Virus record (IMG/VR): IMGVR_UViG_3300045539_000120
Location: 1 to 64,000 of that record
DNA length: 64,000 bases
Strand: one strand, 5' to 3'
From: a virus
A program made the position numbers and the translations under genes. The notes below the pieces were generated by a model. That model saw only the letters and a program-made list of their open reading frames with translations. It was not told the DNA's origin and ran no database searches. Positions 16,060 to 52,800 of this stretch are shown here, piece by piece; the stretch's first letter is position 1; each line of letters begins with the position of its first letter.

Positions 16060-16145
16060 GAGGTAGGACTCGAACCTACAACGTCTTTCGACTTCTGTTT
16101 CCTTATAGAATTTGATTGCTGTAAGGAACCTTTAATGTTTAGTAT
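16060..16145 (-). tRNA. degenerate tRNA-like element (possible pseudogene)
   Basis: T-arm GTAGGTTCGAGTCCTAC present but no complementary 5' acceptor strand found within 100 nt; sits in a ~380-bp ORF-free tract. Confidence 0.25.
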
Positions 16146-29493: not shown

Positions 29494-29575
29494 ATATTGT
29501 TTGTTTTAATTATAATGTAAATATAACTATTATATTTGACATGGTAAACATTTATTTAATAAAGTTATTAACAAT
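29494..29575 (-). promoter_or_regulatory. conserved intergenic element copy
   Basis: tattgtttgttttaattataatgtaaatataactattatatttgacatggtaaacatttatttaataaagttattaacaat (near-identical to the 6620 copy). Confidence 0.5.
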
Positions 29576-29576
29576 T

Positions 29577-29780
29577 TTAATTTTTTCTAATTCCTGTTAC
29601 CATTACATATTTAAACGTTCCATTTGATAAAAACGTATGTTGAATAAATGTTACCTCGTATGTTGCGGCTTTTTCCATTGTTATTAATTCATCTATTAAT
29701 GGTTTTTCAACTTCGCAAATAAAATCATGTTCGCAAACACCTTTATTCATTAGGATAAATCTACACTTCGTCATTGTCAA
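29577..29780 (-). CDS. hypothetical protein
   Basis: 67-aa ORF. Confidence 0.3.
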   Translation of the reverse strand: MTMTKCRFILMNKGVCEHDFICEVEKPLIDELITMEKAATYEVTFIQHTFLSNGTFKYVMVTGIRKN

Positions 29781-30564: not shown

Positions 30565-30644
30565 AATATATGTTATTGTGCAACCTTCGTGTGTTGGATG
30601 CTGGTTATGGTTATTATATAAGTATTACTTATTTTGTTTCAACA

Positions 30645-30893
30645 TTATACATAACATGCAAAATATTCATCTTCTAGCATCCAATTAAGTTGTGCTAATT
30701 TAATAGCATCTTCTTCGCTTAATATTTCAATTACATCTTCGGCATTAATACTATAAATAATATCATGTTCGGCTGCACAAATGACATTTTTTTCGGTGTA
30801 TTTTGCTAAAATTTGTAATCCTTGAAAGGCATTATCACCTTCCCATTTAGATTGTGTTTCTTCAAAAATCTCTTCTAATCTTTCTAGTGTCAT
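30645..30893 (-). CDS. hypothetical acidic protein
   Basis: 82-aa ORF. Confidence 0.35.
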   Translation of the reverse strand: MTLERLEEIFEETQSKWEGDNAFQGLQILAKYTEKNVICAAEHDIIYSINAEDVIEILSEEDAIKLAQLNWMLEDEYFACYV

Positions 30894-30895
30894 AT

Positions 30896-31369
30896 TTATT
30901 TAATTTGATTTTTAACTAAATTTAATGCTTGTCCTAAAAGGTTTAAACCTAACCAATAAGATGGGTCATCAATTCCTTCTGCATTTTCATCAAGTCCAAT
31001 ACCCCAAATATTATCTAATGGAGATGCTTCAACAAAAAAGCGATCACCTGTGTTTAACATTTCGTATCTTAATTCAGGATTTTGTTTGAATTTTGCCAAG
31101 TTTCCTTCATAAACAATTGCCAAACAATTTTTATCCCAAGTTGCTTTATCAAAATTTTGGATTTGTCTACCATATTTCTTTTGCTCTCTTGGATTCGTTT
31201 CTTGCATAATTTGTTCTGCAATATCTTCATCTCCAAATAACAATGCTTTTTGATGCATCATATATTGTTCACAAGAATTATATTCAATATTGTCAATTGT
31301 CATTGGCGCTTTATGCCATTGTGAGTAAATTCCATTCCAGAAAAATACATGTTTGTCTGTGATTTTCAT
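30896..31369 (-). CDS. NADAR-domain protein (YbiA-like)
   Basis: VFFWNGIYSQW...EQYMMHQKALLFGD...IWGIG pattern of NADAR/DUF1768. Confidence 0.65.
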   Translation of the reverse strand: MKITDKHVFFWNGIYSQWHKAPMTIDNIEYNSCEQYMMHQKALLFGDEDIAEQIMQETNPREQKKYGRQIQNFDKATWDKNCLAIVYEGNLAKFKQNPELRYEMLNTGDRFFVEASPLDNIWGIGLDENAEGIDDPSYWLGLNLLGQALNLVKNQIK

Positions 31370-31372
31370 TTC

Positions 31373-31945
31373 TTATGGTTTATAAATTACTACTGACACT
31401 TTCATGTCTTTTAGTTCTGTTTGAATAATCTTTTTAATTCTGTTCCAATCTCCACCCGCTAATCCTGCACCAATCTTTGGCAATCCAATATGTTTACCAC
31501 TAAATACATTATTGATTTTTCTCATACAAAGGGTTAGTGCTTCGTAATCCAAAGGTTTTGAAACTCCATCGGTATGATTCTTACCATAACGAAATTGGGT
31601 GTATGAATTCACAACCGATAATTCAGGTTCATTCAATTTATTGTCAGCATCCTCTAAAGACCAAATAGCATTTTCTCCAATAACGAATTCTTGCCAATCA
31701 ATACAACCAAGTTTTTCAATTGTTGCACCCCAAAGTTCCATTTCAAATTTATCAACTCCAAATGCCTTTGCCATTTGAGGTGCAATTCCAGCTCCCATAT
31801 TTGAAAGACAATTACAACCATGCGTAATTACATCAAAAGTACCTTGCTTTGCTAATGTAATTAAATCACCTTCAATTTCTTGATATGTTGTTTGTTCATT
31901 AGTTTCTATCGCCGATTTTATAAAATCATTAAGTTGTCTTTTCAT
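31373..31945 (-). CDS. macro-domain protein (ADP-ribose binding/processing)
   Basis: ITHGCNCLSNMGAGIAPQMAKAFG matches the macrodomain N.xN..L..G.G core. Confidence 0.6.
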   Translation of the reverse strand: MKRQLNDFIKSAIETNEQTTYQEIEGDLITLAKQGTFDVITHGCNCLSNMGAGIAPQMAKAFGVDKFEMELWGATIEKLGCIDWQEFVIGENAIWSLEDADNKLNEPELSVVNSYTQFRYGKNHTDGVSKPLDYEALTLCMRKINNVFSGKHIGLPKIGAGLAGGDWNRIKKIIQTELKDMKVSVVIYKP

Positions 31946-32457
31946 TATGCAAATCTAAATTGTTTTAAAAACTCTCTTAAGAATACGATTCTTCGAGCCT
32001 CTTGTTCATCAAATTTCATCATCCAATCCCAGTAGCTTGTTGCTTCTGGAGTTCCATCGACATAAAAAGTTCCATCATATTCTGGCCAAGTAACTTTGTC
32101 AAATACTCTGTCATCAACTAAAAAAACTACTGCAGTTAATTGGTCACCTAAATCTGGTTCAAAGAAACTACGAAATTGAACACCTTCGTCTGATAATAAT
32201 TGTCTATGATTATTTAAAGAACCGATATGGTCATGACCTAGCACAAACCTAGTGTTTGTTGTTCCTCCATTTAAAATGATAAAAGTTTTGTCTTCTTTGG
32301 CCCATTTCTGGTATTCTGGAGTTTCAAAAAACTCTAATCCATATTCTACAACAGCATGTCCAAACTGAATGCCTTGTTGGATTGGGCTTATGTTGTAAGG
32401 CACCAATCCATACATTCTATATGTTCTATTGCTCATTAGTAGTTTCCTCTGGAGCAC
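31945..32457 (-). CDS. hypothetical protein
   Basis: 170-aa ORF between macro-domain and PRS-like genes. Confidence 0.45.
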   Translation of the reverse strand: MLQRKLLMSNRTYRMYGLVPYNISPIQQGIQFGHAVVEYGLEFFETPEYQKWAKEDKTFIILNGGTTNTRFVLGHDHIGSLNNHRQLLSDEGVQFRSFFEPDLGDQLTAVVFLVDDRVFDKVTWPEYDGTFYVDGTPEATSYWDWMMKFDEQEARRIVFLREFLKQFRFA

Positions 32458-32568
32458 CTAGATCTGCCTCTACTTCAACTGATTGCAACTCATATCTTGA
32501 ACCTAAGATCGCATCTTGTACTAATACTAAACGGTCCACTGTTTCTGTTTTAATTTCTTTATTCATTT

Positions 32569-32784
32569 TTATATTAATTTTAAGTGTTTTAATTCCTCTA
32601 TTGCATCGTCAAATGCTTCTTGCCAAGTTCGGTGTAAATACCAATTTTTAATTTCGATTCTTTCGTAGTTTCCAAAATGTGTATACTTAAATATATCATA
32701 TGCATACTTAGGGGCACTCGTCTGGTCTAAACTTATTTCTATAATGTAACCACGTTCCGTATATAATGAATCAATGGTGTACAT
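32569..32784 (-). CDS. hypothetical protein
   Basis: 71-aa ORF. Confidence 0.4.
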   Translation of the reverse strand: MYTIDSLYTERGYIIEISLDQTSAPKYAYDIFKYTHFGNYERIEIKNWYLHRTWQEAFDDAIEELKHLKLI

Positions 32785-33680
32785 TATATTACCTTGAATG
32801 TTGTTGCGTTTGTTTTTTCTTCGTACTCATTATCTGCAATATCTCTGTGAGAATTTGTAGTATAAATATGTTCAAAGTATTGTGATAATTCTTTGAATCC
32901 AGCACTGAAAATACCATGTGTAACTATTAAATAAATCTTAGCACTTATTCTTTCATTCTTGATTGCTTTAGCTAATTCTATAAAAGTTCTACCGCCGTCA
33001 CATATATCGTCAATGATTACATATTTCATACCATCGTTAGCAGAGTTAGGGTCTCCAATAGATCCTGGTAAGTTTGGCAATTCAGTTTTAAGAATTTTAC
33101 CAGTTCTCATGTCTCGCACTTTATTTGCCGTAACAATATTTTGGATTTGAAACTTCTTAGCAACGTCGAAGATTTTCTTGTATGCTCCAGCATCTGGGCT
33201 TACTAAGCAAATTCTTTCTTGAGCATCTTTTCTATTATCAATTTCAGTAAGTGCATATTTAACTACAGTGTGATTATCTAATTTTTCATAGTTATTCAAA
33301 CATGCTTCTAAAACATCTGAATGTGGATCTAATGTAATTACCGTTACAAAATTTAAGGAATTAATAATTGGACAAATTACTTGTTTCAAATAATTAACTC
33401 CACCTTCAACAAATTTACGATCTGAACGAGCACCCATAAAGTATGGAACGTAAAGAGCAATTTCTCGATTTGGTTTAATATTTCTGATTGCTGCCGTTGC
33501 ACAAATAATTAATTCTAAATCTTTAAAACTATTTAAACGTGAACTAATTTTCACAGCATCTTCATATATTAATAAGTCATTCCATTCTATAAGGTCTACT
33601 GTTTGTTGACCATCTGGAAATTGACTAATTTTGTACTTGATTTGTGATTTTTCCGGATTAACTAAATCTAATGTTATCAT
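32784..33680 (-). CDS. ribose-phosphate pyrophosphokinase-like protein (PrsA-family; possibly ADPR-PP synthetase type)
   Basis: PRTase nucleotide loop VIIDDICDGGRTF and PRS-like N-terminal domain. Confidence 0.65.
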   Translation of the reverse strand: MITLDLVNPEKSQIKYKISQFPDGQQTVDLIEWNDLLIYEDAVKISSRLNSFKDLELIICATAAIRNIKPNREIALYVPYFMGARSDRKFVEGGVNYLKQVICPIINSLNFVTVITLDPHSDVLEACLNNYEKLDNHTVVKYALTEIDNRKDAQERICLVSPDAGAYKKIFDVAKKFQIQNIVTANKVRDMRTGKILKTELPNLPGSIGDPNSANDGMKYVIIDDICDGGRTFIELAKAIKNERISAKIYLIVTHGIFSAGFKELSQYFEHIYTTNSHRDIADNEYEEKTNATTFKVI

Positions 33681-37630: not shown

Positions 37631-38035
37631 TTATACAGTATGTTCAATTCTTACTCTTATACAGTTCTGTGGCAATCTATGGATATGTCGATAGTTATTT
37701 ATATAACCCATCATATTTGCGCTACCAACTGCATTTGCAGAGTGTATTACAACATCAACAACAGTAGCTCCATCCAACCATTGATTGACCAACCATTTAG
37801 TGCAATCCATTCCAGTCTTCTCTGTAATATTATCATAGTTCAATTCGTAGTTGTGATATACGTTTTTATGCCATTCAGCCATCGCGGTGTCTCCTAAGTC
37901 ATGGTCTAATGAAATTAAATCGATGTTCTCAAGTCCAATTTCAGTAACTTTTTCTACAAATTCATCGTAACTTCTAACAACAACCCAGTCTTTTTCAACT
38001 GGAGTTCTTACATCATCTAAATATACTCTAATCAT
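37631..38035 (-). CDS. hypothetical protein
   Basis: 134-aa ORF. Confidence 0.4.
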   Translation of the reverse strand: MIRVYLDDVRTPVEKDWVVVRSYDEFVEKVTEIGLENIDLISLDHDLGDTAMAEWHKNVYHNYELNYDNITEKTGMDCTKWLVNQWLDGATVVDVVIHSANAVGSANMMGYINNYRHIHRLPQNCIRVRIEHTV

Positions 38036-38318
38036 TTTTTAATTCCTTTAAATAGTTTACCAAATCTTGCAATTTATCAGCGTCCTTTGGATTAAATATA
38101 AATTCATCAAAGGCTCCATAATTACATTGATATCCAAAAATGTATTTTATTCCATGTTTAACTCGTTGCCAAAATGGTTTTTTAGTTAAATGTATATGAA
38201 AATAACATGTTGGATATTTGTGCCCTTCGACCTCATCTTCATCGTATAATATTATGAGTTGGTGGTCGGTCGAGTGACAAGCACAAATTAAAATCTCTTT
38301 ATCTTCTAGTTGTTTCAT
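38028..38318 (-). CDS. hypothetical protein
   Basis: 96-aa ORF. Confidence 0.4.
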   Translation of the reverse strand: MKQLEDKEILICACHSTDHQLIILYDEDEVEGHKYPTCYFHIHLTKKPFWQRVKHGIKYIFGYQCNYGAFDEFIFNPKDADKLQDLVNYLKELKND

Positions 38319-38347
38319 ATCTATTATATGTACAAATGTGATTTTGT

Positions 38348-39088
38348 TTATTTTTTCTCAAATGTAGGTTTTAACCACATACCATCTTTAAAAACAAGAT
38401 TTAAAAATCCTGGAATAACTTGGTCAATATCTACCAATAATCTAAGACTTCTTGGAGTATCGTGTGCCATCATTTTAAATATTTCTTCTCTAATTCTTTG
38501 GCCGCTTACGGTTTGCTCAAGTTTCTTCAGGATGTTTGGTTGTTTCATTGCCTCCCAAATATCATCACTCATAATGAAATCCTTTGTAACTGTAAATCTC
38601 AATGCTCTTAATATTCTTAATGGGTCATCCATTAGGGTAACTTTAGCATCCATTGGAGTACGTAAAATACCAACCTTTAAATCTTCAATACCTCCAAAAA
38701 GATCAATAATGTTTCCATCAATATCTTCTGCTAAGGCATTTAAGGTAAAATCTCTACGAAGTAAATCATCTTCTAAAGTACCTAATTCTAAGATTGGTCT
38801 ACGAGTTCCTTTCGTGTAACCTATTTCCTTACGAGCCATTACAAAATCTGCAACCAGTCCTGCAAATTGATGGTCCTTTGGAAACTTGGCGCGAATTGTA
38901 AAACAATCTGGAGTACTTAAGAATATTTCAAATCCTTGGTCCGTCATCCAGTTCGTCATGATTTGAAAACCATCTTCAACTGTAAATCCTTTGGTATCTT
39001 CTAATACGAATGTGAAATCTATATCTTTGGAATCTACACCAAGGAATTTATCCCTGATGCAACCTCCTACTTTAAATATTTTTGCCAT
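38348..39088 (-). CDS. tRNA nucleotidyltransferase (CCA-adding enzyme / poly(A)-polymerase head-domain family), minimal form
   Basis: VGGCIRDKFLGVDSKDIDF (GGxVRD...DxD) and RRDFTLNALA motifs; start placed at MAKIFKVGG. Confidence 0.7.
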   Translation of the reverse strand: MAKIFKVGGCIRDKFLGVDSKDIDFTFVLEDTKGFTVEDGFQIMTNWMTDQGFEIFLSTPDCFTIRAKFPKDHQFAGLVADFVMARKEIGYTKGTRRPILELGTLEDDLLRRDFTLNALAEDIDGNIIDLFGGIEDLKVGILRTPMDAKVTLMDDPLRILRALRFTVTKDFIMSDDIWEAMKQPNILKKLEQTVSGQRIREEIFKMMAHDTPRSLRLLVDIDQVIPGFLNLVFKDGMWLKPTFEKK

Positions 39089-39095
39089 TTTTATC

Positions 39096-39449
39096 TTAAT
39101 TAAATAAGGTACTTGGTGCACCTACGTTATACATTAAACTTGCGAAGAATTTAAAACCTTTATATGAAGTTCCATCCGCACTTCCAATTGCATTCATTAA
39201 ATCATTACCTACAAATGCCTGAACAAATCCACCTCCTTGATAACCAACCCCCCATTTTGTACAAAGAATCGATGTACCTATTTGGATAATATGATTCTTT
39301 TCAGATTCTGGTAATTCAGATAAATTTAACCATTGAGCATTTTCAGCAAAATAATTAGTTACTACTTCTTTTACGATTTCAATTTGGTCTACTGTGTTCA
39401 TATTGTTTATGTTTTTAATTATAATGTAAATATAACTAAAAAAAGCCAA
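39096..39449 (-). CDS. hypothetical protein
   Basis: 117-aa ORF. Confidence 0.4.
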   Translation of the reverse strand: MAFFSYIYIIIKNINNMNTVDQIEIVKEVVTNYFAENAQWLNLSELPESEKNHIIQIGTSILCTKWGVGYQGGGFVQAFVGNDLMNAIGSADGTSYKGFKFFASLMYNVGAPSTLFN

Positions 39450-39512: not shown

Positions 39513-40394
39513 TTATTGGACATATATTGTCTGTGTATCTTTTTTCCAATATGTAGTTGATATTGGGTTGCCAACATTATTAGTACTTGCTCTATATGAA
39601 TTTACTAAATTGACATTATTTACTTTAATCTCATATAAGTTTGGATTATTAGAGGTTGAACATGTTCTAGGTACACCATTATTTGCAGTATTTTTAATAT
39701 TTAAAGTGCGTAAATCGCAACCATCTAACACTATTACATTTAATATTGGATTTTCAGATAAATCTAAATGTTGTATAGGATTTCCTCCATTTGGATTATT
39801 AAAACCTACGCCTAACCAAAGATCAGTTAATCGTGGGCAATTACTTACGTCTAGACTTGTAATTCTATTTACCCATAAATATATTCTTTCTAGTTTAGTA
39901 TTATATGTTAAATCCAAGCCTATTAATCCTTTTGTTTTTCCATATTCATATGTAGGGTCAGATATCCGTTGGCTATTATTTTGAAAATCAAGTTCTACTA
40001 ATTCGGTATTTTGTGATAAATCCAAGATTGTCAATGGGCATTCGCTTAATCCTAATAATTTTAACTTTTTTAAACTTCTTAAATTAATAGAAGTAAAATC
40101 ATTATCCCATAGTAAAAGAGTTTCCAAGTTTATAAAACTTTCAATTCCAGAAATATTTTCAATTCTCAAATGTTCAAGTCTAATAGATCTTAATAAAGAT
40201 ATATTAGAAGTTAGTACCTTTCCATCTAAAAGATTATCATGTCCTAGCGATATCAATGCTGTTTCAAATTTTAGATCTGGAATTAAAGTCCATTCCGGAA
40301 GTGCAGGAGGAGTAATTATGTATGGCTCCTCGGTAATGCTAGGAGTTGAACATGACACAATTGTAATTGCTAATAGTAACAGTAATTTTTTCAT
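39513..40394 (-). CDS. leucine-rich-repeat lipoprotein
   Basis: lipoprotein signal MKKLLLLLAITIVSCS followed by repeated LxxLxLxxN-type units. Confidence 0.5.
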   Translation of the reverse strand: MKKLLLLLAITIVSCSTPSITEEPYIITPPALPEWTLIPDLKFETALISLGHDNLLDGKVLTSNISLLRSIRLEHLRIENISGIESFINLETLLLWDNDFTSINLRSLKKLKLLGLSECPLTILDLSQNTELVELDFQNNSQRISDPTYEYGKTKGLIGLDLTYNTKLERIYLWVNRITSLDVSNCPRLTDLWLGVGFNNPNGGNPIQHLDLSENPILNVIVLDGCDLRTLNIKNTANNGVPRTCSTSNNPNLYEIKVNNVNLVNSYRASTNNVGNPISTTYWKKDTQTIYVQ

Positions 40395-40466: not shown

Positions 40467-40979
40467 TTATTTTCCAATAAAAAGATAATCTTTCCACTCT
40501 TCTGGAATATGGTCAATAGTTTTCATTAACATCAAATAATGTGGTCTCTTTGGATTTGGAATTTCTTTACCATATTCCTCAAGGCTAAGATCTGCCTTTT
40601 CACCATTACATTTTCTGCATGCTGTAACAAGATTCTCCCAACTGTTTGGTCCACCCTTACTTTGTGGAATAACATGGTCAAGTGTTAGTACCTTTCTATT
40701 TGTTTGTCCACAATAAACACATGTCCATTCATCTCTTTTAAATACATTATCTCTGGTTAATGGAACACTCACATGTCTAGTATTTACATACTTAGGAACT
40801 CTAATGATAGATGGTTTGTGTAAAATAACAGTAGGATCGCACATATTAAATGTTGCATCATGGTTTTGAACAATACTAGCGTTTCCCTTATACACAATGA
40901 CAAAGGATCTTAAGCTACTAATAATACTACGAGGAATATAGCTTGAATCTAACACTAATGTTTTTGAATATTTGTCCAT
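40467..40979 (-). CDS. HNH endonuclease
   Basis: CVYCGQ...LTLDHVIPQSKGG...WENLVTACRKCN. Confidence 0.75.
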   Translation of the reverse strand: MDKYSKTLVLDSSYIPRSIISSLRSFVIVYKGNASIVQNHDATFNMCDPTVILHKPSIIRVPKYVNTRHVSVPLTRDNVFKRDEWTCVYCGQTNRKVLTLDHVIPQSKGGPNSWENLVTACRKCNGEKADLSLEEYGKEIPNPKRPHYLMLMKTIDHIPEEWKDYLFIGK

Positions 40980-41095
40980 GTTTTTATTTAATAGTATAAC
41001 ATATTGGTAATAATTTGGGTGTAAGGACGGTACCGCCCCGTCTTCTCAAGATTCACAGTCTTGCACTTCACTAAAAAGCTTCGAACACCATATAA

Positions 41096-41152
41096 TTTGG
41101 GAAACGGTAGGATTCGAACCTACGAAGACCTCCGTTGTCTCATTTCCCCTTT
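41096..41152 (-). tRNA. tRNA-like minihelix (~54 nt: acceptor stem + 4-bp hairpin + canonical T-arm, no D-arm)
   Basis: minus strand GGGAAAT-GAGACAACGGAGGTCTTC-GTAGGTTCGAATCCTAC-C-GTTTCCC-A; 7-bp acceptor with one G-U. Confidence 0.3.
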
Positions 41153-41514
41153 GTACCGACTACAAGTTACGCTCTTGTCTGAAAATACTTATGAGATATT
41201 TTCGATCCTAGATCAAGTCGGCAATTATACTCCATACCCATCACGTTAAGGCTGATTATGGGCGACGCAACCTACGGTCAACTTTCGTTATGGAGTTTGC
41301 GGAAAGCAGAGGTATCGATCCCCATACCATTAAAGGTACGATTCGCTTAGCAAGCGGTCCTGAATCCTATTCAGTTTACTTTCCATTTAGAGAGACTTTG
41401 GGTCTTTCAGGGTTACTGGTTAAATGCAATGAGTGAGCTCTTCCTACTACTAACCCTTTTTCAGAAATTAATACACTCTACCTTTTAACTACAGCTTAAA
41501 CTGTCTCTCTATTG

Positions 41515-41594
41515 TACCCAGGGAGAGACTCGAACTCTCAAGCTTTCGCCACGGCTTCTAAGACCGCTGTGTCTACCAATTCCACCACCAAGGC
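41515..41594 (-). tRNA. tRNA-Leu(TAG), type II
   Basis: T-arm GAGAGTTCGAGTCTCTC, acceptor GCCTTGG/CCTGGGT (one mismatch), anticodon loop CTTAGAA, variable hairpin GCGAAAGC. Confidence 0.6.
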
Positions 41595-41691
41595 ATAAAG
41601 CCAATCCCGTAGATTGGCCGCTCAACTTAAGGTATTGAGTTTGCAAGAATAAATCTCTGACCAGGTCATGCGTCCTTTGGGCGCCGACAGT

Positions 41692-41763
41692 GACCCCGGT
41701 GGGACTCGAACCCACGACTCCCTGATTAAAAGTCAGGTGCTCTACCAACTGAGCTACGAAGTC
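41692..41763 (-). tRNA. tRNA-Lys(TTT)
   Basis: acceptor GACTTCG/CGGGGTC, D-arm GCTCAGTTGGTAGAGC, anticodon loop CTTTTAA. Confidence 0.8.
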
Positions 41764-41820
41764 TTGCCTTTTTTAGAGTTTTTATAGAACTCAAGGATAG
41801 TACAACCTATAAACTAAAGT

Positions 41821-41892
41821 AGCGGGTGAGGGACTCGAACCCCCGACCTTAAGCTTATGAGGCTCACGAGATACCAACTTCTACCAACCCGC
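41821..41892 (-). tRNA. tRNA-Met(CAT)
   Basis: acceptor GCGGGTT/CACCCGC, anticodon loop CTCATAA. Confidence 0.6.
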
Positions 41893-41903
41893 AATATATC
41901 TTG

Positions 41904-41975
41904 TAGTCAATAAAGGACTCGAACCCTTATTCCCGAGTTCGTAGCCCGGTGTTCTATCCATTGAACTAATCGACT
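41904..41975 (-). tRNA. tRNA-Arg(ACG)
   Basis: acceptor AGTCGAT/ATTGACT, anticodon stem CCGGG/CTCGG, loop CTACGAA. Confidence 0.75.
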
Positions 41976-41977
41976 AA

Positions 41978-42054
41978 TGGTGGTCCATTCAGGACTCGAA
42001 CCTGAGACCTACTGATTATGAGTCAGGCGCTCTAACCAACTGAGCTAAAAGACC
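41978..42054 (-). tRNA. tRNA-Met or tRNA-Ile2(CAT), CCA encoded
   Basis: D-arm GCTCAGTTGGTTAGAGC, anticodon loop CTCATAA, 3' ACCA. Confidence 0.65.
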
Positions 42055-42059
42055 ATTAA

Positions 42060-42470
42060 ATAATAAGTTGTTCCATACCGAACTATTAGGAACTATTAGG
42101 GCTTCTCGGACGAGGTGCACAACCCATAACGGCTATGATATGTTCTCTGTTACTTGGCTCCACCTACATGGATTAATCAGGAATCGAACCCACCTAATCG
42201 ATATATGCCTATATCAATGTTCACAGCATATCAACTTATCATTTTGCACAAGCAGAAGGGGTCGAACCTTCATCATCGGTTTTGGAGACCGGTATGCTAC
42301 CATTGCACCATACTTGTATTTTGTGGGAGATTATGGAATCGAACCATACCCTCTTACAGAACGATTTTACAGACCGCTTACATCACCAGATGCTGAAACC
42401 TCCCAAATTTAACTACCACCTGACTCCTTTCGAGCAGTGGAAACTCGTATCATTCAATTTTGGTAGTTAG
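42060..42470 (-). tRNA. tract of tRNA-like elements and fragments with aberrant arms
   Basis: several minus-strand T-loop signatures (RC of ggaatcgaacc, ggtcgaacc, ggaatcgaacc) without canonical full cloverleafs on hand-folding. Confidence 0.3.
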
Positions 42471-42471
42471 C

Positions 42472-42545
42472 TCCCCAGCTAGGACTCGAACCTAGGACCC
42501 CCTGATTAACAGTCAGGTGCTCTAACCAACTGAGCTACTGAGGAA
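42472..42545 (-). tRNA. tRNA-Asn(GTT)
   Basis: acceptor TCCTCAG/CTGGGGA, anticodon loop CTGTTAA, T-arm CTAGGTTCGAGTCCTAG. Confidence 0.8.
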
Positions 42546-42780
42546 TATTGTTGACTAATAAGGATTTGAACCTTAATCCTGTGTCCGCCCTCAGTCACTT
42601 CCGTACTTACTAACTTCTACTGTGCACCATACACCATAATCATTCCGAATGTTTCGAACCATTCAGTCTTAAGATTAATTACTTCTTAAGATTTGTTGCG
42701 ATTAGAGGAATCGAACCTCTCAGTGGTATATCTACCAAATCGTCTCATGAGAACGAACCTACACCGATATCGCAATTTAG
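42546..42780 (-). tRNA. tract of tRNA-like elements
   Basis: includes acceptor+T-arm minihelix TGACTGA...TAAGGTTCAAATCCTTA-TTAGTCA; a perfect 8-bp palindromic hairpin TCTTAAGA-agtaattaa-TCTTAAGA; further T-loop-like motifs. Confidence 0.3.
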
Positions 42781-42782
42781 TG

Positions 42783-42856
42783 TCTTTACATGGGATTCGA
42801 ACCCATACTCTTCGGGCTCAGTGCCCGCGTTCCAAACCAAGTTAAACTACGTAAAG
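42783..42856 (-). tRNA. tRNA-Gln(CTG)-like (4-bp anticodon stem)
   Basis: acceptor CTTTACG/TGTAAAG, anticodon hairpin CGGG-CACTGAG-CCCG, T-arm TGGGTTCGAATCCCA. Confidence 0.4.
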
Positions 42857-42954
42857 CAATCAATTAAAATTACAGAAATTAGTGTCGACAAATTTCTTTA
42901 AGCTATATGTAATCTTAATCGTTAGGAAGATATTGCTGATCAGGCATCTTCTTT

Positions 42955-43062
42955 GTAATTATGATTGGATTCGAACCAATTTCAGCTTTACAATAAAGAG
43001 TATATTTCAACTCAACCTTTGTGAGGTGCCGCCAACCAATGGCCTCATAATCATTTGTGGAT
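42955..43062 (-). tRNA. tRNA-like element with long extra arm and no readable standard anticodon
   Basis: acceptor GATTATG/CATAATT (G-U at bp 1) and T-arm ATTGGTTCGAATCCAAT. Confidence 0.25.
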
Positions 43063-43547
43063 AGAAACCAGACCTATCCTAGAGCTGCAGCTCTGTTATA
43101 ACTTATGCATCATCCTCAATGCTTCAACCCTTTGGCTATTACGGGTGTGGACTCGAACCACATTTTTCAGTTACCTATGCTTTTTCAAACTTGGTTTTAG
43201 TTGCTTTCCTTGCGCAAGGTTCATAACTAATTTCCAGTATCACCACGAGGAGGTGTTTGATTGATACCGCTACGCTTCGTTGGTACTTGCCGTTTCTTAA
43301 GTCGACACTTTCCCCGTTGCACGTTTTATTTAAGTGTACTTCCCTACTAGCGTCCTTGAAGCCAACACTTTTTAATTTGAGCTGCCTTATTACTAAGGTT
43401 TCGGATCGCATCTTTGATTAGGTAGCGAACCTATCATTAACGTCTCAAAGTAATTGTTAGTCTTTTCCTTACCTCTTAATAATTACACTGCCCGTCAGAT
43501 GTTACTGTCTGATGCTTACCAATCATACTGGGGTAATTATTAAATTG

Positions 43548-43619
43548 TAACGCCACGGAGAATCGAACTCCGATTTTTAGGATGAAAACCTAATGTCCTA
43601 ACCGTTAGACGATGGCGTC
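43548..43619 (-). tRNA. tRNA-Glu(TTC)
   Basis: acceptor GACGCCA/TGGCGTT, anticodon stem TTAGG/CCTAA, loop TTTTCAT, T-arm CGGAGTTCGATTCTCCG. Confidence 0.7.
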
Positions 43620-43651
43620 ATTTAAATTATTATCAAGATGTCAAATAACGT

Positions 43652-43727
43652 TTGTTCTAATTTGTTATGTAAATATAACTATAATATTTGAACCATGAAA
43701 ACTTTTTTCCAAAAGTTATTAACAATT
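43652..43727 (-). promoter_or_regulatory. conserved intergenic element copy heading a tRNA operon
   Basis: tgtcaaataacgtttgttctaatttgttatgtaaatataactataatatttgaaccatgaaaacttttttccaaaagttattaacaat; nearest downstream minus-strand feature is tRNA-Glu, no ATG. Confidence 0.5.
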
Positions 43728-43731
43728 TTTG

Positions 43732-43803
43732 AGCGACTAGAGAGAATCGAACTCTCATCTTCAGATTGGAAGTCTGAAGTAATGACCATTATACGATAGT
43801 CGC
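43732..43803 (-). tRNA. tRNA-Gly(TCC)
   Basis: perfect acceptor GCGACTA/TAGTCGC, anticodon loop CTTCCAA. Confidence 0.8.
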
Positions 43804-43812
43804 ATTGTATTG

Positions 43813-43901
43813 TGCAAGAAGCTGGGATCGAACCAGCGGCACGTCCATGTTCCTTCCAACCGAAGTACTGGGGATTGCTCTACCAACTGAGCTATTCTTG
43901 C
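43813..43901 (-). tRNA. tRNA-like gene with canonical acceptor, D- and T-arms but expanded, unfoldable anticodon region (possible Tyr-GTA type or pseudogene)
   Basis: acceptor GCAAGAA/TTCTTGC, D-arm GCTCAGTTGGTAGAGC, T-arm GCTGGTTCGATCCCAGC; 39 nt between D- and T-arms contains CAGTACT. Confidence 0.35.
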
Positions 43902-44044
43902 ATTTGGGTAGGTCAGAGGCCTTCTGCCTACCGAGACCTCGTCGTTGAACTTCTGGAAGCCAGAGCGTACCGAGACACTTTTTAAATAAAAATCAGGATC
44001 GGTTTGTTTTTAGTGCTCTACCAACTGAGCTACTTGCTTTTCAT

Positions 44045-44115
44045 CAAGATACACAAGGTCGGATTCGAACCGACGACCACTGCTTTAAAAGAGCTGTTTG
44101 TTACTGTTTGCTGTA
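44045..44115 (-). tRNA. tRNA-like element (T-arm GTCGGTTCGAATCCGAC)
   Basis: T-arm plus CTTTTAA-like loop, but stems not canonical. Confidence 0.25.
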
Positions 44116-44136
44116 ACGATCCTTATTATTTTATTG

Positions 44137-44209
44137 AGCTTCTGACCGGGTTCGAACCGATGACATCTTCATTACAAGTGAAGTGCTCTACCAACTAAGC
44201 TACAGAAGC
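44137..44209 (-). tRNA. tRNA-Thr(TGT)
   Basis: perfect acceptor GCTTCTG/CAGAAGC, anticodon stem CTTCA/TGAAG, loop CTTGTAA. Confidence 0.8.
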
Positions 44210-44271
44210 AAATTAGAGTTTTCGTATTATTAAAGCCAATACCCGGAATAATCTCTCAACCAAAACACTAG

Positions 44272-44342
44272 TCCCCTCAGGTGGAATCGAACCACCGCCA
44301 ATTGCATGTAAAACAATTACGCTACCATTACGCCATGTGGGG
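44272..44342 (-). tRNA. tRNA-Val(TAC)
   Basis: acceptor CCCCACA/TGAGGGG (one A-A mismatch), anticodon stem ATTGT/GCAAT, loop TTTACAT. Confidence 0.6.
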
Positions 44343-44401
44343 AATTCTAATTCTACGCTCACAATATGTAGTTCTATGAATTAGTAACAGTCTCGTCTGT
44401 G

Positions 44402-44472
44402 TCTAATAGGCAGGATTCGAACCTGCGTACTCCTCAGTCCAAGTGAGGCATGTGACCTAGCTTCGCTACTAG
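44402..44472 (-). tRNA. tRNA-Pro(TGG)-like
   Basis: acceptor CTAGTAG/CTATTAG, perfect anticodon stem CCTCA/TGAGG with loop CTTGGAC; D-arm atypical. Confidence 0.45.
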
Positions 44473-44483
44473 AAATTTAATTT

Positions 44484-44562
44484 GTTGCCTATGAAGGTAC
44501 TGACCCTCCTCCGATGCTGTCAAAGAGCATTGTACCACCTTTATACGAATAGGCAAAAAGTT
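44484..44562 (-). tRNA. tRNA-Gln(TTG)-like with aberrant T-loop (probable pseudogene)
   Basis: acceptor GCCTATT/CATAGGC, anticodon hairpin ATGCT-CTTTGAC-AGCAT; T-loop lacks the TTCGA motif. Confidence 0.3.
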
Positions 44563-44566
44563 TCAG

Positions 44567-44639
44567 TGGACCCTACAGGAATCGAACCTGTTCCTCTAGT
44601 TCTTCAGACTAGCGTACGCACCAGCTATACCAAAGGTCC
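44567..44639 (-). tRNA. tRNA-Phe(GAA)
   Basis: acceptor GGACCTT/AGGGTCC, anticodon stem CTAGT/ACTAG, loop CTGAAGA. Confidence 0.75.
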
Positions 44640-44655
44640 ATCTATTATTACCAAT

Positions 44656-44750
44656 ATGTCAAATAACGTTTGTTTTAATTTCTTATACAAATATAACTAT
44701 TACATTTGAAATAAAAAAACTTTTAATGTTAAATTTATGTTAACATTTTT
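44656..44750 (-). promoter_or_regulatory. degenerate element copy heading a tRNA operon
   Basis: atgtcaaataacgtttgttttaatttcttatacaaatataactattacatttga...; shares an extra 5' segment (tgtcaaataacgtttgtt) with the 43652 copy. Confidence 0.4.
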
Positions 44751-44751
44751 G

Positions 44752-44822
44752 AGTTCAGTATTGGAATCGAACCAATATCTCAGAGTTTGCAATCCTGCGC
44801 CTAACCATTCGGCCAACCGAAC
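44752..44822 (-). tRNA. tRNA-Cys(GCA)
   Basis: acceptor GTTCGGT/ACTGAAC, anticodon loop TTGCAAA (as in E. coli tRNA-Cys), T-arm ATTGGTTCGATTCCAAT. Confidence 0.6.
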
Positions 44823-45125
44823 TTGTAAAATCAAAAAAGGACCAATCATTTCTGAAAGGTCCTTTTGAATATATTATATGTTAATAGCGCTTAGCTCATA
44901 CTAACATTTCTTTTTTCAAAAAGACCAACTTGCTTCCATTCATTATAAAAGGGACATATCGTGCCAACCATTCCTAGGACCGGTTGAAAACTATTTATAT
45001 GTTGCTGAGTTGTTTGCATTTTAATTGTTTTGTTCTTAATAAACAAGAGCGTTAATGTTCTTGTGTTAATTATATATCTATATATCTTTTTGTTTCAGTG
45101 AATTCACACTTTATTTAAATTATTT

Positions 45126-45413
45126 TCAAAAAAGTTCATTTCCATGATTCTTTATTATCTTTATGATAATATCTCCATGACATGGGCCTGGTTTGCACCA
45201 ACATCCAAGTGTCTTTCCTTTTAATTCTTGTAAACTTTCCATCAGTTCACTATTTGAAAGTAGATATTTTTCATATGCACTTATTGCTTCCTTTATTGTG
45301 TTTACTTTAAATTCTGCAAGTGTTCCATCTTTATGCGAATATGGATTTCCCCAAATACTTGGCCTTCCGATATAAACATCGTATGGTTCTTTATTTATAT
45401 GTACTACTTTCAT
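45126..45413 (-). CDS. DUF4326-like protein
   Basis: GRPSIWGNPY ... CWCKPGPCHGD pattern. Confidence 0.5.
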   Translation of the reverse strand: MKVVHINKEPYDVYIGRPSIWGNPYSHKDGTLAEFKVNTIKEAISAYEKYLLSNSELMESLQELKGKTLGCWCKPGPCHGDIIIKIIKNHGNELF

Positions 45414-45416
45414 TTG

Positions 45417-45490
45417 TGATTCGGACAGGATTCGAACCTGTGGCCTACGGTTTAGAAAACCGTTGCTCTATCCGGCTGAGCTACCGAACC
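45417..45490 (-). tRNA. tRNA-Arg(TCT)
   Basis: acceptor GGTTCGG/CCGAATC, anticodon stem ACGGT/ACCGT, loop TTTCTAA. Confidence 0.8.
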
Positions 45491-45500
45491 TAATTGTTAA

Positions 45501-45902
45501 TTATATATCAATTGCCATCTTTGTTTCAAGCGCCTTGATATGTTTACAGTGTCCTCTTCTAAATGAAGATGCTGGACAATTACAATTCCACTGCTCTCTT
45601 TTATAAGTAACTAAATATTCAGACTTGCCATTTGACGATGGTACCTTAAATTCAAGTTCTTTCTGAGATATTTCAGGTGATTTTAAGGGTTGCTTATATT
45701 TGTCAACTGTTATATCATCACTAAATTCTATATCATCTCGGGTTGTTCCTTCATCAACAGGGATCCATCCTGGACAGATATATAGACCATTTAATGTTCT
45801 TACAATTCCAAAATCCTTAAACACAGGGTGTCTTGCTATTTTATACTTACTCATACGTTTGTTTTTTATTATATACAAATATAAACAAAAAAAGCCAAAC
45901 AA
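45501..45902 (-). CDS. SWIM-type zinc-finger hypothetical protein
   Basis: WNCNCPASSFRRGHCKHIKALE (CxCx...CxH). Confidence 0.4.
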   Translation of the reverse strand: MFGFFCLYLYIIKNKRMSKYKIARHPVFKDFGIVRTLNGLYICPGWIPVDEGTTRDDIEFSDDITVDKYKQPLKSPEISQKELEFKVPSSNGKSEYLVTYKREQWNCNCPASSFRRGHCKHIKALETKMAIDI

Positions 45903-45916
45903 AAAAATGTTTGGCT
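45887..45916 (-). terminator. intrinsic terminator
   Basis: minus strand GCCAAAC-attttttt-GTTTGGC then TTTTTTT; same stem as the terminator at 39445. Confidence 0.5.
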
Positions 45917-45941
45917 ACTTATTTTCAAATAAAATTAATTT

Positions 45942-46112
45942 TTATTTTACTGAATCAATTTTAACTGTAGCAGAATCTGTTTGAACTAATGTACTATCAG
46001 TTTGAACTAATGTACTGTCAGTTGTTGTAGTTTCTTCAGTTGTTGCTGAATTGTTTTTGCAAGAAGTCAATGTTGCGATAGCTATTAAAGCTAATAAAAA
46101 TACTTTTTTCAT
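45942..46112 (-). CDS. small lipoprotein with tandem DSTLVQT repeat (56 aa)
   Basis: MKKVFLLALIAIATLTSCKNN lipobox; below ORF-track cutoff. Confidence 0.35.
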   Translation of the reverse strand: MKKVFLLALIAIATLTSCKNNSATTEETTTTDSTLVQTDSTLVQTDSATVKIDSVK

Positions 46113-51832: not shown

Positions 51833-52312
51833 TTAAAAATTTTGATTTGTTATTATACAGTCGTAATTCAAAAAGTTTCCGAATTGCTCATTATCTGCCT
51901 GAATTCTTCTTTCGATTGTATCATCTTTGTCGTTACGTTGATATAATCTAGCTCTTCTGGTTTCCTCAGGGATGTCTAGGTAGATTACAAATAATCTGTT
52001 GCGGTATACATCATCTAGTAATTCAACAGCCTCAGCATTAAGTATCATTACATCACATCGTTCGAATTCGTCAACAGTTAAACCATATCTCCAATCGTTA
52101 AATGCTTGCCATTCTACAAATTGTCCATTGTCAATATTTAATTGAAATTCTTCTTGAGATAGGAAGTAGTAATCTTCTCCATGGATTTCTCCAGGTCGAG
52201 GTGGTCTGGTAGTGCATGAAACACCATACTCAAACCCTCTATTCATAAATCGTTTTCTTAGATAATCTTTGCCGGAAGTCGCGGCTCCTACTAATGCAAT
52301 TTTGCCTTTCAT
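51833..52312 (-). CDS. guanylate-kinase-like nucleoside monophosphate kinase
   Basis: VSCTTRPPRPGEIHGEDYYFLSQEEF closely matches the GMP-kinase substrate-binding motif. Confidence 0.55.
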   Translation of the reverse strand: MKGKIALVGAATSGKDYLRKRFMNRGFEYGVSCTTRPPRPGEIHGEDYYFLSQEEFQLNIDNGQFVEWQAFNDWRYGLTVDEFERCDVMILNAEAVELLDDVYRNRLFVIYLDIPEETRRARLYQRNDKDDTIERRIQADNEQFGNFLNYDCIITNQNF

Positions 52313-52347
52313 TTATGTGTTTTTAGAATATTATATAACCCTTTTAA

Positions 52348-52800
52348 TTAGAACGGCCCTTCGGCAACTTGCATACATGTGATACCATTGTCTCTCCACA
52401 TTTTAACTACCTTGTCTCTATCATCAAAAACACACATAACGTTATGTCCATCTTGAATCAAATCATCTAACCACATTTTTTTAAGTTTATCATCAGGCGT
52501 AAAACTTCCGTTTTTACGCATTTTCAAAAATGCAGGTTTAATTCCAAATGTTGCTAACCAATCAATGGTAACTTCTCTACTAATATCATCTCTACCACTA
52601 AAGATTCCAACTGTAAAACCTGCAAGTTGTAATGCCTTGAATGTATTAATTACTGGCCAGTTTGGTTTATCCAATCCAATATTTACTGGATTAAAAAAAG
52701 CTTTCCAATTCATTTTTCCATCAGGAAATGTGGCCAATGCTCGTCTTTCATCGATAAGGGCAAGTGTACCATCTAAATCGAAAATTACAGTCTGTGTCAT
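52348..52800 (-). CDS. HAD-superfamily phosphatase (PNK 3'-phosphatase-like)
   Basis: N-terminal VIFDLDGTL motif. Confidence 0.55.
   Translation of the reverse strand: MTQTVIFDLDGTLALIDERRALATFPDGKMNWKAFFNPVNIGLDKPNWPVINTFKALQLAGFTVGIFSGRDDISREVTIDWLATFGIKPAFLKMRKNGSFTPDDKLKKMWLDDLIQDGHNVMCVFDDRDKVVKMWRDNGITCMQVAEGPF

Follow-up and report, generated by a model that had tools for sequence, protein, structure and literature searches.

A phage tRNA array that may alternate ordinary tRNA genes with conserved RNA cassettes bearing tRNA-like processing handles

The window analyzed here comprises positions 1 to 64,000 of the IMG/VR virus record IMGVR_UViG_3300045539_000120, a 64-kb stretch of about 31% G+C with nearly all genes on the minus strand. 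ARAGORN finds 24 tRNAs in it, 18 of them in a single minus-strand cluster (41514-45490), and our subject is the part of that cluster between 42060 and 43545. An earlier note, made from the letters of the window, had described this part as a mosaic of degenerate tRNA-like elements, palindromic hairpins and GC-richer segments between canonical tRNAs, and had ascribed it to repeated tRNA duplication and decay or to deliberate decoys. We favor, with somewhat more confidence than doubt, the view that the array is a same-strand alternation of ordinary tRNA genes and conserved RNA cassettes that fold independently, carried on a precursor that would be processed through tRNA-like handles. The comparison with related phages shows each cassette to be an RNA structure under selection on the minus strand. 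It also shows that the cassettes are reshuffled between these phages.

Relatives were collected as IMG/VR contigs found with the DUF4326 protein encoded in the array (45126-45413), and more viral and metagenome contigs were gathered by exact-motif scans with conserved pieces of the sequence left over after tRNA removal, followed by BLAST and nhmmer maps (contigs are cited below by L numbers). Each leftover piece recurs in 6-20 distinct related contigs, at identities of 66-100%. Pairwise identity was 74-100% among the first BLAST homologs and averages 79-93% in the final module alignments, where the lowest pairs stand at 60-82%. In megablast and blastn searches, GenBank phages match the region at the tRNAs only and the modules occur in no deposited phage; the protein at 39513-40394, used as a query, found no relatives in IMG/VR. 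For each module the distinct homologs were aligned, a consensus fold was predicted and its pairs were counted, with the 3' partners slid by 1-3 columns as a control. Across ten modules, 94-99% of the predicted pairs are formed and each module has 2-10 compensatory pairs; in the slid controls pairing drops to 14-54%, with 0-4 compensatory pairs. Because invariant G.U pairs are valid only on the minus strand (they would be C.A on the other), selection appears to act on minus-strand RNA rather than on DNA, and because the modules are kept with this degree of pairing and with compensatory pairs, neutral decay is rejected as a general explanation. The elements are as follows.

42057-42244, minus strand: module A, about 190 nt, between tRNA-Trp and tRNA-Met, with a 12-13-bp terminal stem AUAAGUUG/CAACUUAU
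42246-42317, minus strand: tRNA-Trp(CCA), called by ARAGORN; Rfam tRNA 60.9 bits
42323-42404, minus strand: class II (long variable arm) tRNA-Tyr(GUA), called by ARAGORN
42405-42468, minus strand: S1, a hairpin of 64 nt closed by 8 bp, its internal loops GAAUGAUACGAG / UUCGAAAGGAGUCAG being conserved
42470-42544, minus strand: tRNA-Asn(GUU), called by ARAGORN; Rfam 71.1 bits
42551-42642, minus strand: B2, a tRNA-like domain with conserved acceptor stem UGAUUA/UUAGUCA, 4-bp D-like arm and T arm
42647-42664, minus strand: hp2, a T-arm-like hairpin GAAUG-GUUCGAAA-CAUUC with an 8-nt loop
42667-42691, minus strand: hp1, a palindromic 8-bp hairpin UCUUAAGA-aguaauuaa-UCUUAAGA
42695-42775, minus strand: B1, probably a non-canonical tRNA; acceptor stem of 7 bp (UUGCGAU/AUCGCAA), D region reduced, T arm normal
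42782-42857, minus strand: GlnX, tRNA-like, called Gln(ctg) by ARAGORN; acceptor stem, D arm and T arm conserved
42858-42950, minus strand: M6, a two-hairpin element, the 5' neighbor of GlnX
42956-43053, minus strand: M5, a tRNA-like RNA of 98 nt with an 8-bp acceptor stem UGAUUAUG/CAUAAUUA and a normal T arm
43059-43180, minus strand: M4 unit, with a 5' domain closed by GGUAAC/GUUAU, then a hairpin, then a tRNA-like domain
43185-43268, minus strand: candidate self-cleaving ribozyme of the hepatitis delta virus (HDV)-like kind, the 3' part of M3
43269-43377, minus strand: M3 5' domain, structured, whose 3' end would be set by the candidate ribozyme
43372-43453, minus strand: M2, a three-way junction with a 10-bp closing stem UUACUUUGAG/CUCAAAUUAA
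43457-43542, minus strand: M1, a three-way junction starting 4 nt past tRNA-Glu, with a 10-11-bp closing stem

Automated tools do not turn this interval into a regular set of tRNAs: tRNA-Trp, tRNA-Tyr, tRNA-Asn and a marginal 'Gln(ctg)' leave about 1.1 kb unaccounted for (42055-42245, 42405-42469, 42545-42781 and 42858-43546). The earlier note had accepted as canonical only Asn and a weaker Gln(CTG). This was too strict on one side and too generous on the other, as ARAGORN and Rfam add tRNA-Trp and tRNA-Tyr, and the supposed Gln is the tRNA-like GlnX. For tRNA-Tyr the Rfam match that survives clan competition is tRNA-Sec at 40.3 bits (threshold 47), and likewise for its homologs in L001 and L002. 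The note's count of at least eight minus-strand T-loop signatures is correct. With the pattern GGTTCRANNCC and at most one mismatch, 11 lie inside 42060-43545, nine of them exact (minus strand, at 42180, 42258, 42335, 42482, 42562, 42707, 42793, 42967 and 43149) and two with one mismatch (minus strand, 42650 and 43421), and the whole window holds 57 against 11.5 +/- 3.3 expected. The GC-richer tract is likewise there (0.405 over 42001-44000 against about 0.31 for the genome), and 42858-43546 contains, as had been stated, only short open reading frames (ORFs), none conserved in position or size in six relatives. Protein coding by these small ORFs was considered and rejected; the 78-aa ORF at 43175-43411 depends on the M2/M3 junction, and relatives lack this junction. 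Some half of the leftover bears no resemblance to tRNA, and consists of module A, S1, M1, M2, M3, M6 and the candidate ribozyme.

The structural conservation of the tRNA-like modules is divided unevenly between the two halves of the tRNA. GlnX, B2, M5 and M4 are shown by their alignments to be look-alikes that preserve the upper half (acceptor stem, T arm and a D-like element) and leave the lower half free. An acceptor stem and a T arm with a loop of the GUUCRANYC type, both with compensatory changes, are found in GlnX, B1, B2, M5 and the M4 of relatives. B1 alone carries a conserved anticodon in a 7-nt loop on a 5-bp stem; GlnX, B2, M5 and M4 lack such an arm. GlnX has 9 homologs and 20 pairs (98% formed, 6 compensatory). 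The loop of its 'anticodon' hairpin ranges from 4 to 12 nt without conserved sequence, and its homologs are called Gly(acc), Tyr(ata) or ???(tt) by ARAGORN. GlnX scores 30.8 bits against the Rfam tRNA model (RF00005, threshold 29), and its L011 homolog 29.6 bits; it is the sole leftover module to reach an Rfam threshold, and does so marginally. At E<=10 the Rfam tRNA model reports none of B1, B2, M5, M4 and module A, and their homologs in L001, L002, L005 and L011 go unreported as well.

B2 and M5 depart further from the standard form. The middle of B2, at the position of the anticodon and variable arms, runs from about 16 to 70 nt with large indels among 16 distinct homologs; its 3' trailer is A-CAA, and ARAGORN calls it 'Thr(agt)' in L002 and L195 and makes no call in the window. 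The minihelix TGACTGA...TTAGTCA proposed here by the earlier note can be drawn in the window sequence, but in 16 relatives it is an outer pairing that persists; this joins TGATTA (42642-42637) to TTAGTCA/TAATCA and closes the 92-nt B2 domain. M5 (17 homologs, 25 pairs, 98.3% paired, 7 compensatory) has a D-like stem (4 bp in the alifold consensus, GCCA/UGGC) around a loop with a conserved UUGG, a 3' trailer CAAA, and three small hairpins that stand in for the anticodon and variable arms, with a loop of 5 nt at the anticodon position. ARAGORN sees M5 only at a relaxed threshold, with a 2-base 'anticodon'. Over 107 nt, M5 is 100% identical to L002 and L131, while the DUF4326 protein of L002 is only 84% identical.

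The M4 unit is the most strongly supported by covariation (36 pairs, 97.7% of them formed; 11 are compensatory, whereas slid versions give 0-2, and the observed score is attained in 0 of 500 shuffles). Its 5' domain holds a T-loop-like hairpin (43163-43145) and is followed by an invariant hairpin AGAGC-UGCA-GCUCU (43094-43081). In relatives the unit measures about 160 nt and ends in a 6-bp acceptor stem, GUCUGGUUAAAG, a short hairpin and a T arm; the D substitute is stemless, and the short hairpin, with a 3-5-nt loop, stands where the anticodon arm would be. In the window this last domain is truncated to GGAUAG-gucugguuu-CUAUCC (43079-43059), with the hairpin and the T arm lost, which among 15 distinct copies is the case in the window's only. 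Either the handle is dispensable or this copy is decaying. In L148 (metagenome contig Ga0070747_1021818, 2395-2577) the M4 unit is tandemly duplicated with a 166-nt period.

B1 stands apart and is probably a non-canonical CAU tRNA, as read from its conserved loop and stem. Its anticodon stem of 5 bp presents an invariant 7-nt loop, CUCAUGA, with CAU at 42749-42747; its variable arm, GGUA-GAUA-UACC, is long and capped by GAUA, and 12 nt take the place of the D arm. Ten distinct homologs support 22 pairs, 99% of them formed, with 4 compensatory changes including some in the anticodon stem. The L002 copy is called tRNA-Met(cat) of 87 nt by ARAGORN, and in L087 and L090 the B1 slot is occupied by an ordinary initiator-type tRNA-Met.

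The non-tRNA modules are conserved to a similar degree. Module A (20 distinct homologs, 37 pairs, 97.8% paired, 7 compensatory) has a highly conserved 3' half, GGGUUGUGCACCUCGUCCGAGAAGCCCUAAUAGUUCCUAAUAG, and in a distant group its closing stem is swapped for another complementary pair, UGUAUCA/UGAUACA. In 11 of 12 contexts examined, the T arm and acceptor end of a tRNA lie just upstream of it, even where both the flanking tRNAs and the closing stem differ, and in most contexts the 5' end of a tRNA follows within a few nucleotides. Its motif occurs in 18 IMG/VR contigs, and the module has no Rfam match. A 19-mer of module A gave five matches in contigs of metagenome-assembled genomes (MAGs), and a true module A is present in two of these, L203 (Rhodothermales MAG, 530 nt) and L205 (Vicinamibacteria MAG, 3.2 kb), both of which are probably mis-binned phage fragments; there is no indication that the module originated in a host. 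S1 (9 distinct homologs, 17 pairs, 98% paired, 5 compensatory) lies here between tRNA-Asn and tRNA-Tyr and in other slots in L195 and L168, three slots in total. The perfect 8-bp palindrome that had been noticed earlier (TCTTAAGA-agtaattaa-TCTTAAGA) is indeed at 42667-42691, as hp1; 16 distinct sequences preserve it, and two of its pairs are compensatory (UUCUAAGA...ACUUAGAA in L189 and L083). The stem of hp2 covaries in 16 sequences as GAAUG/CAUUC, GAUGG/CCAUC and GUCAG/CUGAC.

M6 is supported by 13 homologs and 28 pairs (98.9% paired, 5 compensatory). M2 (11 homologs, 26 pairs, 98.6% paired, 2 compensatory; two copies in L189) has one hairpin with a pentaloop and one with a GNRA loop (CCUUA-GYAA-UAAGG). 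In M1 (9 homologs, 23 pairs, 98.6% paired, 6 compensatory) one of the two hairpins has the conserved loop NRGUAACR, and the element ends in an invariant purine-rich tail, AAGAGGUAAGGAAAAGAC; a search for a complementary partner of this purine tract found none beyond chance. M3 as a whole has the weakest support, with 6 homologs, 35 pairs, 94% paired and 4 compensatory, a number that one slid control equals, and it is an insertion relative to L001, L002, L005, L011 and L083. We considered S1 and M2 as hammerhead ribozymes and rejected the idea, since essential core positions mismatch on inspection and Rfam gives no match. M2-M5 as a tRNA with a group I intron was likewise rejected, the ARAGORN intron mode giving spurious results only and Rfam no intron match. 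Outside M3, a generic descriptor for HDV-like folds found nothing in the modules.

The 3' part of M3 (43268-43185) is a probable HDV-like self-cleaving ribozyme by its modeled fold. In it, P1 would pair GGUAUC (43268-43263) with GAUACU (43241-43236) over 6 bp beginning with a G.U pair, P2 would pair UCAAAC (43260-43255) with GUUUGA (43190-43185), P3 would be a 3-bp helix of ACC with GGU capped by L3 UCCUCGU, P1.1 would join GG (43235-43234) to the CC of L3, and P4 (UUAGUU...AACUAA) would lead into J4/2, AACCAA; the predicted cut falls between C43269 and G43268. Read by hand, the nested double pseudoknot in canonical order fits 8 aligned homologs with 97% pairing. The generic HDV descriptor, run over 2.3 Mb on both strands, gives 12 matches, all of them this element, against 0-1 in shuffles. 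Among 19 distinct homologs the core is present in all and P4 is well paired (5-6 of 6 pairs) in 16. P3 is always ACC/GGU or GCC/GGC and never mixed, and P4 covaries as UUAGUU/AACUAA, UUGGUU/AACCAA and UUAGAC/GUCUAA; P1, P2 and P1.1 have no support from covariation, as these helices never vary. In J4/2, C43194 is invariant (AACCAA, AACUAA or GCUAA) and is preceded by 1-2 nt, compared with one nucleotide before CUAAG in RF02682, the Faecalibacterium prausnitzii HDV-like ribozyme. The candidate reaches 18.5 bits with RF02682 (threshold 44), a model that cannot score P2 or P1.1 and has a different P4 length; the core aligns closely.

HDV-like theta ribozymes are known beside phage tRNAs, where a role in processing the 3' trailer has been proposed (Kienbeck et al. 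2024, PMC10879173). The candidate shares with theta ribozymes and RF02682 the layout of P1 with its first G.U pair, P1.1, P2, a 3-bp P3, P4 and a C in J4/2, and its core ACaCCUCnnCGUGGu...GG and CUAAG/CCAAG junction resemble those of RF02682. Like theta ribozymes it sits among phage tRNAs, and its cleavage there would generate a 3' end. Points of difference are its 6-bp P1, the two extra A in J4/2 and a score below the RF02682 threshold. It also differs from theta ribozymes in that it follows a structured non-tRNA RNA, whereas they lie within 5 nt of a tRNA, and in that its contigs are environmental, whereas theta ribozymes have been reported from gut phages only.

The arrangement of these modules is what suggests a common expression strategy. 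The same cassettes occur in varying orders and combinations across related contigs, and some elements are clearly tRNA-derived, so the description of the region as a mosaic was apt. The order M5-M6-GlnX-B1-B2 of the window becomes B1-M5-B2-M6-GlnX in L083 and M1-M5-M3-M4-M6-GlnX in L090, and M3 is present only in some contigs. Certain cargoes and handles move together, namely M6 with GlnX (M6 adjoins GlnX in every mapped contig that has M6), hp1 and hp2 with B2, and the ribozyme with an M4 unit or a tRNA that follows it within 5-10 nt. All elements lie on one strand, that of the tRNAs, and every non-tRNA module is flanked by tRNAs or tRNA-like domains with spacers of a few nucleotides. In the tRNAs of the phage group, CAA directly follows the discriminator in 113 of 224 cases (background 4%) and CCA in 1 of 224. 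M4, M5, B2 and B1 have the same N-CAA(A/U) trailer and the few-nucleotide spacing of real tRNAs.

We propose that the array would be transcribed as long precursors from phage promoters. Every tRNA and tRNA-like domain would be cut on its 5' side by RNase P, and the common N-CAA trailer would be where RNase Z or exonucleases act. The CCA-adding-family enzyme (38348-39121) would then supply the CCA end, and the ribozyme would define an additional 3' end. Stem-closed small RNAs would be released from the precursor in this way, the tRNA-like domains acting as processing or stabilizing handles (punctuation) for the non-tRNA cargo RNAs, which would probably serve the phage in the tRNA/RNA conflict suggested by the neighboring repair genes. 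We infer a continuous transcript only from the common strand and the lack of terminator-like sites, which show no excess over shuffles in 40900-45700. A sigma-70 promoter scan of the same interval likewise gave no excess over shuffles; the host probably does not use the sigma-70 consensus. On the minus strand, at 43627-43729 and 44645-44747, a repeat of about 100 nt with AACAAACGUUAUUUGACAU precedes tRNA-Glu and tRNA-Phe respectively; its AACAAACGTTATTTGACAT has two exact copies against 0.15 expected, with copies elsewhere in L001, L002 and L003, and the repeat is probably a phage promoter or regulatory element. A bolder proposal, to which we lend limited credence, is that in a lineage of huge phages, so far seen only in metagenome assemblies, the tRNA array is an expression platform for undescribed small RNAs, combining anticodon-less decoys or cofactors, CCA-tailed by the enzyme of the phage and directed against tRNA-targeting immunity of the host, with new active folds (A, S1, M1 and M2).

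Several points weigh against the proposal of cassettes released through tRNA-like handles. It infers co-transcription, cuts by RNase P and RNase Z, addition of CCA and activity of the ribozyme alike. With so many real tRNAs in the array, the need for extra handles is not obvious. The M4 tRNA-like domain has only 6 clear acceptor pairs, and in the window the M4 handle is truncated while the cargo upstream of it is intact. In the ribozyme, the invariance of P1, P2 and P1.1 is partly forced by the search pattern, and two extra A precede the candidate catalytic C in J4/2. Single-sequence folding energies are not significant against shuffles (z-scores of -1.78 for module A, -1.86 for a YrlA-like element described below and -0.38 for the 689-nt stretch), and the evidence for structure comes from comparison with relatives and not from the lone sequence. 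Finally, shuffle-based statistics are inflated here because the sequences are related, and the slid controls are the safer comparison.

The tRNA-like domains could themselves be the product, as anticodon-less mimics, CCA-tailed and perhaps aminoacylated, that act as decoys or sponges protecting the phage tRNAs. Possible targets are host factors that read the upper half or the 3' end of tRNA, namely toxins directed at the acceptor or CCA end, tRNA-sensing defense systems or modification enzymes. The earlier note had also thought of decoys, and the option, which we regard as doubtful but worth keeping in view, is compatible with look-alikes in which the acceptor stem, T arm and D-like element are selected and the anticodon end varies; a permuted YrlA-like tRNA mimic lies in the same array, and the window is dense in genes for tRNA/RNA repair and NAD/ADP-ribose counter-defense (a set as in PMC7824862). 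Decoys leave about half of the leftover unexplained, namely modules A, S1, M1-M3 and M6, which are not tRNA-like, and known anticodon nucleases require the anticodon loop that is lacking here. The decoy role is compatible with that of a processing handle, and both may hold. Genuine decoding by all the tRNA-like elements, as unusual tRNAs overlooked by standard tools, with expanded arms and odd loops and perhaps a part in recoding, seems to us improbable. The invariant loop CUCAUGA and the covarying stem below it make B1 very probably a decoder, or at least an RNA that presents an anticodon, and several homologs are called tRNAs by ARAGORN; the loops of GlnX, B2, M5 and M4, on the other hand, measure 3-12 nt or more and vary in sequence, the called identities shift from genome to genome, and no conserved suppressor anticodon is found.

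Three further explanations are each very improbable in our estimation. Neutral decay of duplicated tRNAs, leaving pseudogenes and chance hairpins, would suit the loss of the T arm in the window's M4 domain, the degenerate T loop of tRNA-Gln(UUG) at 44484-44555, the gain and loss of cassettes between genomes and the HNH homing endonuclease genes in or at the edge of both tRNA clusters. It is difficult to reconcile with the same non-canonical forms recurring in 6-20 distinct contigs with compensatory substitutions and high pairing, with the 107-nt identity of M5 beside a protein of 84% identity, or with variation that is limited to loops and the lower half. Duplication and decay, as the earlier note had it, thus fails as a general cause (10 of 10 modules are kept, with compensatory pairs) and stands locally, for the window's M4 copy and tRNA-Gln(UUG). 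The stretch 42858-43546, or more, might instead be one giant ornate RNA of the GOLLD or ROOL kind, being some 690 nt of contiguous, ORF-free, structured and GC-richer sequence beside phage tRNAs. GOLLD and ROOL often lie beside phage tRNAs and sometimes contain them, and the 5' half of GOLLD is variable and modular. Yet no Rfam match to GOLLD, ROOL or another large RNA was found (E<=10 in 41000-46000, E<=1 in four related loci), each module is closed by its own terminal stem, modules are reordered, single, duplicated or absent, and no long-range pairing between modules was seen. The conserved blocks could also be selfish or DNA-level elements that play no part as RNA, such as sites of recombination or homing, miniature mobile elements or remnants of introns spread via the neighboring HNH enzymes, for which one may cite their cassette-like mobility, the HNH genes at 40467-40979 and 15268-15699, the near-identical blocks amid diverged genomes and the tandem M4 duplication in L148. 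The strand-specific G.U pairs and compensatory changes indicate instead that selection acts on RNA pairing; the blocks have a single orientation, the same as the tRNAs, and terminal repeats or target-site duplications were not noticed, no systematic search having been made.

Processing through tRNA-like handles has precedents. In plant mitochondrial t-elements (PMC1920247) and the mascRNA-type elements of MALAT1 and NEAT1 (PMC8457004, PMC9777231), cuts by RNase P and RNase Z define the ends of neighboring RNAs. These elements resemble the phage ones in having a non-decoding tRNA-like fold, with acceptor and T parts kept, next to another RNA in what would be a longer transcript, and the t-element layout is matched by M6 before GlnX, hp1 and hp2 before B2, and the 5' domain before the M4 domain. 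They are eukaryotic or organellar and flank mRNAs or long non-coding RNAs, whereas the phage cargo consists of small structured RNAs within a tRNA array, and the predicted cleavage of the phage elements has as its only, indirect sign an N-CAA trailer and a spacing like those of the real tRNAs. Phage T4 makes two small non-tRNA stable RNAs, C and D, which lie among its tRNA genes and are co-transcribed and co-matured with them. The present array, which we liken to them by description only, differs in holding a dozen modules of several kinds. The tRNA-like cluster of Gammaherpesvirus 68, the TMERs (PMC4337559), uses its tRNA-like part for expression and processing of attached small RNAs and, as here, not for decoding; it belongs to a eukaryotic virus, relies on Pol III promoters, carries microRNAs and is unrelated in sequence. 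The tRNA-like domain of tmRNA also joins an acceptor stem and a T arm via a stemless D substitute (compare GUCUGGUUAAAG of M4 and the 12 nt of B1), a likeness of form only, as ARAGORN finds no tmRNA and there is neither a tag reading frame nor a pseudoknot ring.

The array combines known kinds of elements, namely tRNA-like processing elements, tRNA-associated ribozymes and the stable RNAs of phage tRNA clusters. Such clusters are usually annotated as tRNAs plus junk or pseudo-tRNAs; here about a dozen selected RNA structures lie within 1.5 kb. Several of them are candidates for new RNA families, and the HDV-like candidate comes from phage contigs of environmental rather than gut origin, a setting from which theta ribozymes had not been reported. 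The look-alikes form a natural series that keeps the half of the tRNA read by RNase P, RNase Z, the CCA-adding enzyme and elbow-binding factors. Calls of the ARAGORN type (Gln, Gly, Tyr or Thr on non-decoding elements) inflate and distort phage tRNA inventories.

A permuted tRNA-like domain lies further along the same array. On the minus strand, 44012-44081 matches positions 24-84 of YrlA (RF02553) at 35 bits (threshold 69), the aligned parts being the T arm, the closed acceptor hairpin and the D arm; the minimum free energy fold agrees, within a closing stem GGAUCG/CGAUCC, and the element possibly extends over 43995-44117. At the equivalent place in L002 (11221-11350) the full YrlA model is matched, at 36.3 bits. 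YrlA is a component of Ro60/RtcB RNA-repair modules, and ROT/TROVE proteins are encoded by some jumbo phages (PMC7824862). No TROVE/Ro60 domain was found among the 60 window ORFs scanned against Pfam, and the Ro-binding helix is unmatched in the YrlA-like element. Unlike YrlA, the tRNA-like domains inside 42060-43545 are not permuted.

Other irregular tRNAs occur in the window. The T loop of tRNA-Gln(UUG) (44484-44555, minus strand) is GGAGG-GUCAGUA-CCUUC; this tRNA is missed by ARAGORN at its default setting and unreported by Rfam at E<=10, while the T loop is normal in the homologs from L002, L008 and L001, of which the L002 and L001 copies score 54-61 bits. A 90-nt 'tRNA' at 43812-43901 (minus strand) is called Tyr(gta), or Pro(tgg) with a 10-nt intron, by ARAGORN and scores 46.6 bits with Rfam; its anticodon region has no normal stem, and it may be a further tRNA-like RNA. 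T-loop signatures beyond the normal tRNA calls are also seen on the minus strand at 3405-3470, 3527-3613, about 3786-3796, 16066-16076 and 41110-41120, two adjoining elements among these having a common acceptor GTCAGG/CCTGAC and one being called Pro(tgg) at only 34 bits. Relaxed ARAGORN adds weak candidates at 41017-41088, 41153-41222 and 41299-41384, so that the phenomenon extends past the flagged interval.

The gene context also bears on the role of the array. The 977-aa tail sheath is closest to that of the uncultured 462-kb phage LR756500 (49% identity) and next to those of other metagenomic phages of 0.6-0.7 Mb, Tenacibaculum jumbo phages and Prevotella Lak megaphages. By these tail sheath relatives, the source of the window is identified as a huge, uncultured myovirus, whose nearest cultured relatives on the same basis infect Bacteroidota. 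The Pfam scan, confined to the 60 ORFs of the window, identified the following RNA-repair genes.

2025-3149: RNA ligase
29761-30564: Thg1
38348-39121: CCA-adding-family nucleotidyltransferase (PolyA_pol/CCA-adding)
51833-52800: kinase and PNKP phosphatase

Further RNA-repair or conflict genes in the window encode cREC, HAD_SAK_2, an RNase T-like exonuclease, NADAR and NAMPT. The gene set matches the RNA-repair and NAD-conflict set of jumbo phages that has been described as a response to host attack on tRNA (Iyer et al., PMC7824862). It is unusually complete, including also an AAA_33 kinase, a weak Macro match and a PRPP-synthetase-like protein, and is spread over 2025-3149, 4518-4913, 6678-7364, 20888-21574, 27994-33680, 37631-39121 and 51833-52800. 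This context makes a role of the array in tRNA-centered conflict plausible, and keeps the decoy explanation alive too. With the array in a tRNA-repair-rich region, its modules are concrete, testable RNAs for the study of how large phages defend or manipulate the tRNA pool.

Some additional features deserve mention. The main tRNA cluster has a free-standing HNH endonuclease gene at its edge (40467-40979, minus strand) and the smaller cluster has one inside it (15268-15699, minus strand); both are possible drivers of cassette exchange. The 95-aa DUF4326 protein gene (45126-45413, minus strand) lies between tRNA-Arg(UCU) and tRNA-Cys; the protein is 69-92% identical in the best dozen related loci, and a relative is encoded in 147 IMG/VR stretches. 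The terminase large-subunit ORF (433 aa, 62654-63955, minus strand) aligns only with the later part of its profiles (e.g. Terminase_6N 73-205), and the gene may be split or N-terminally truncated.

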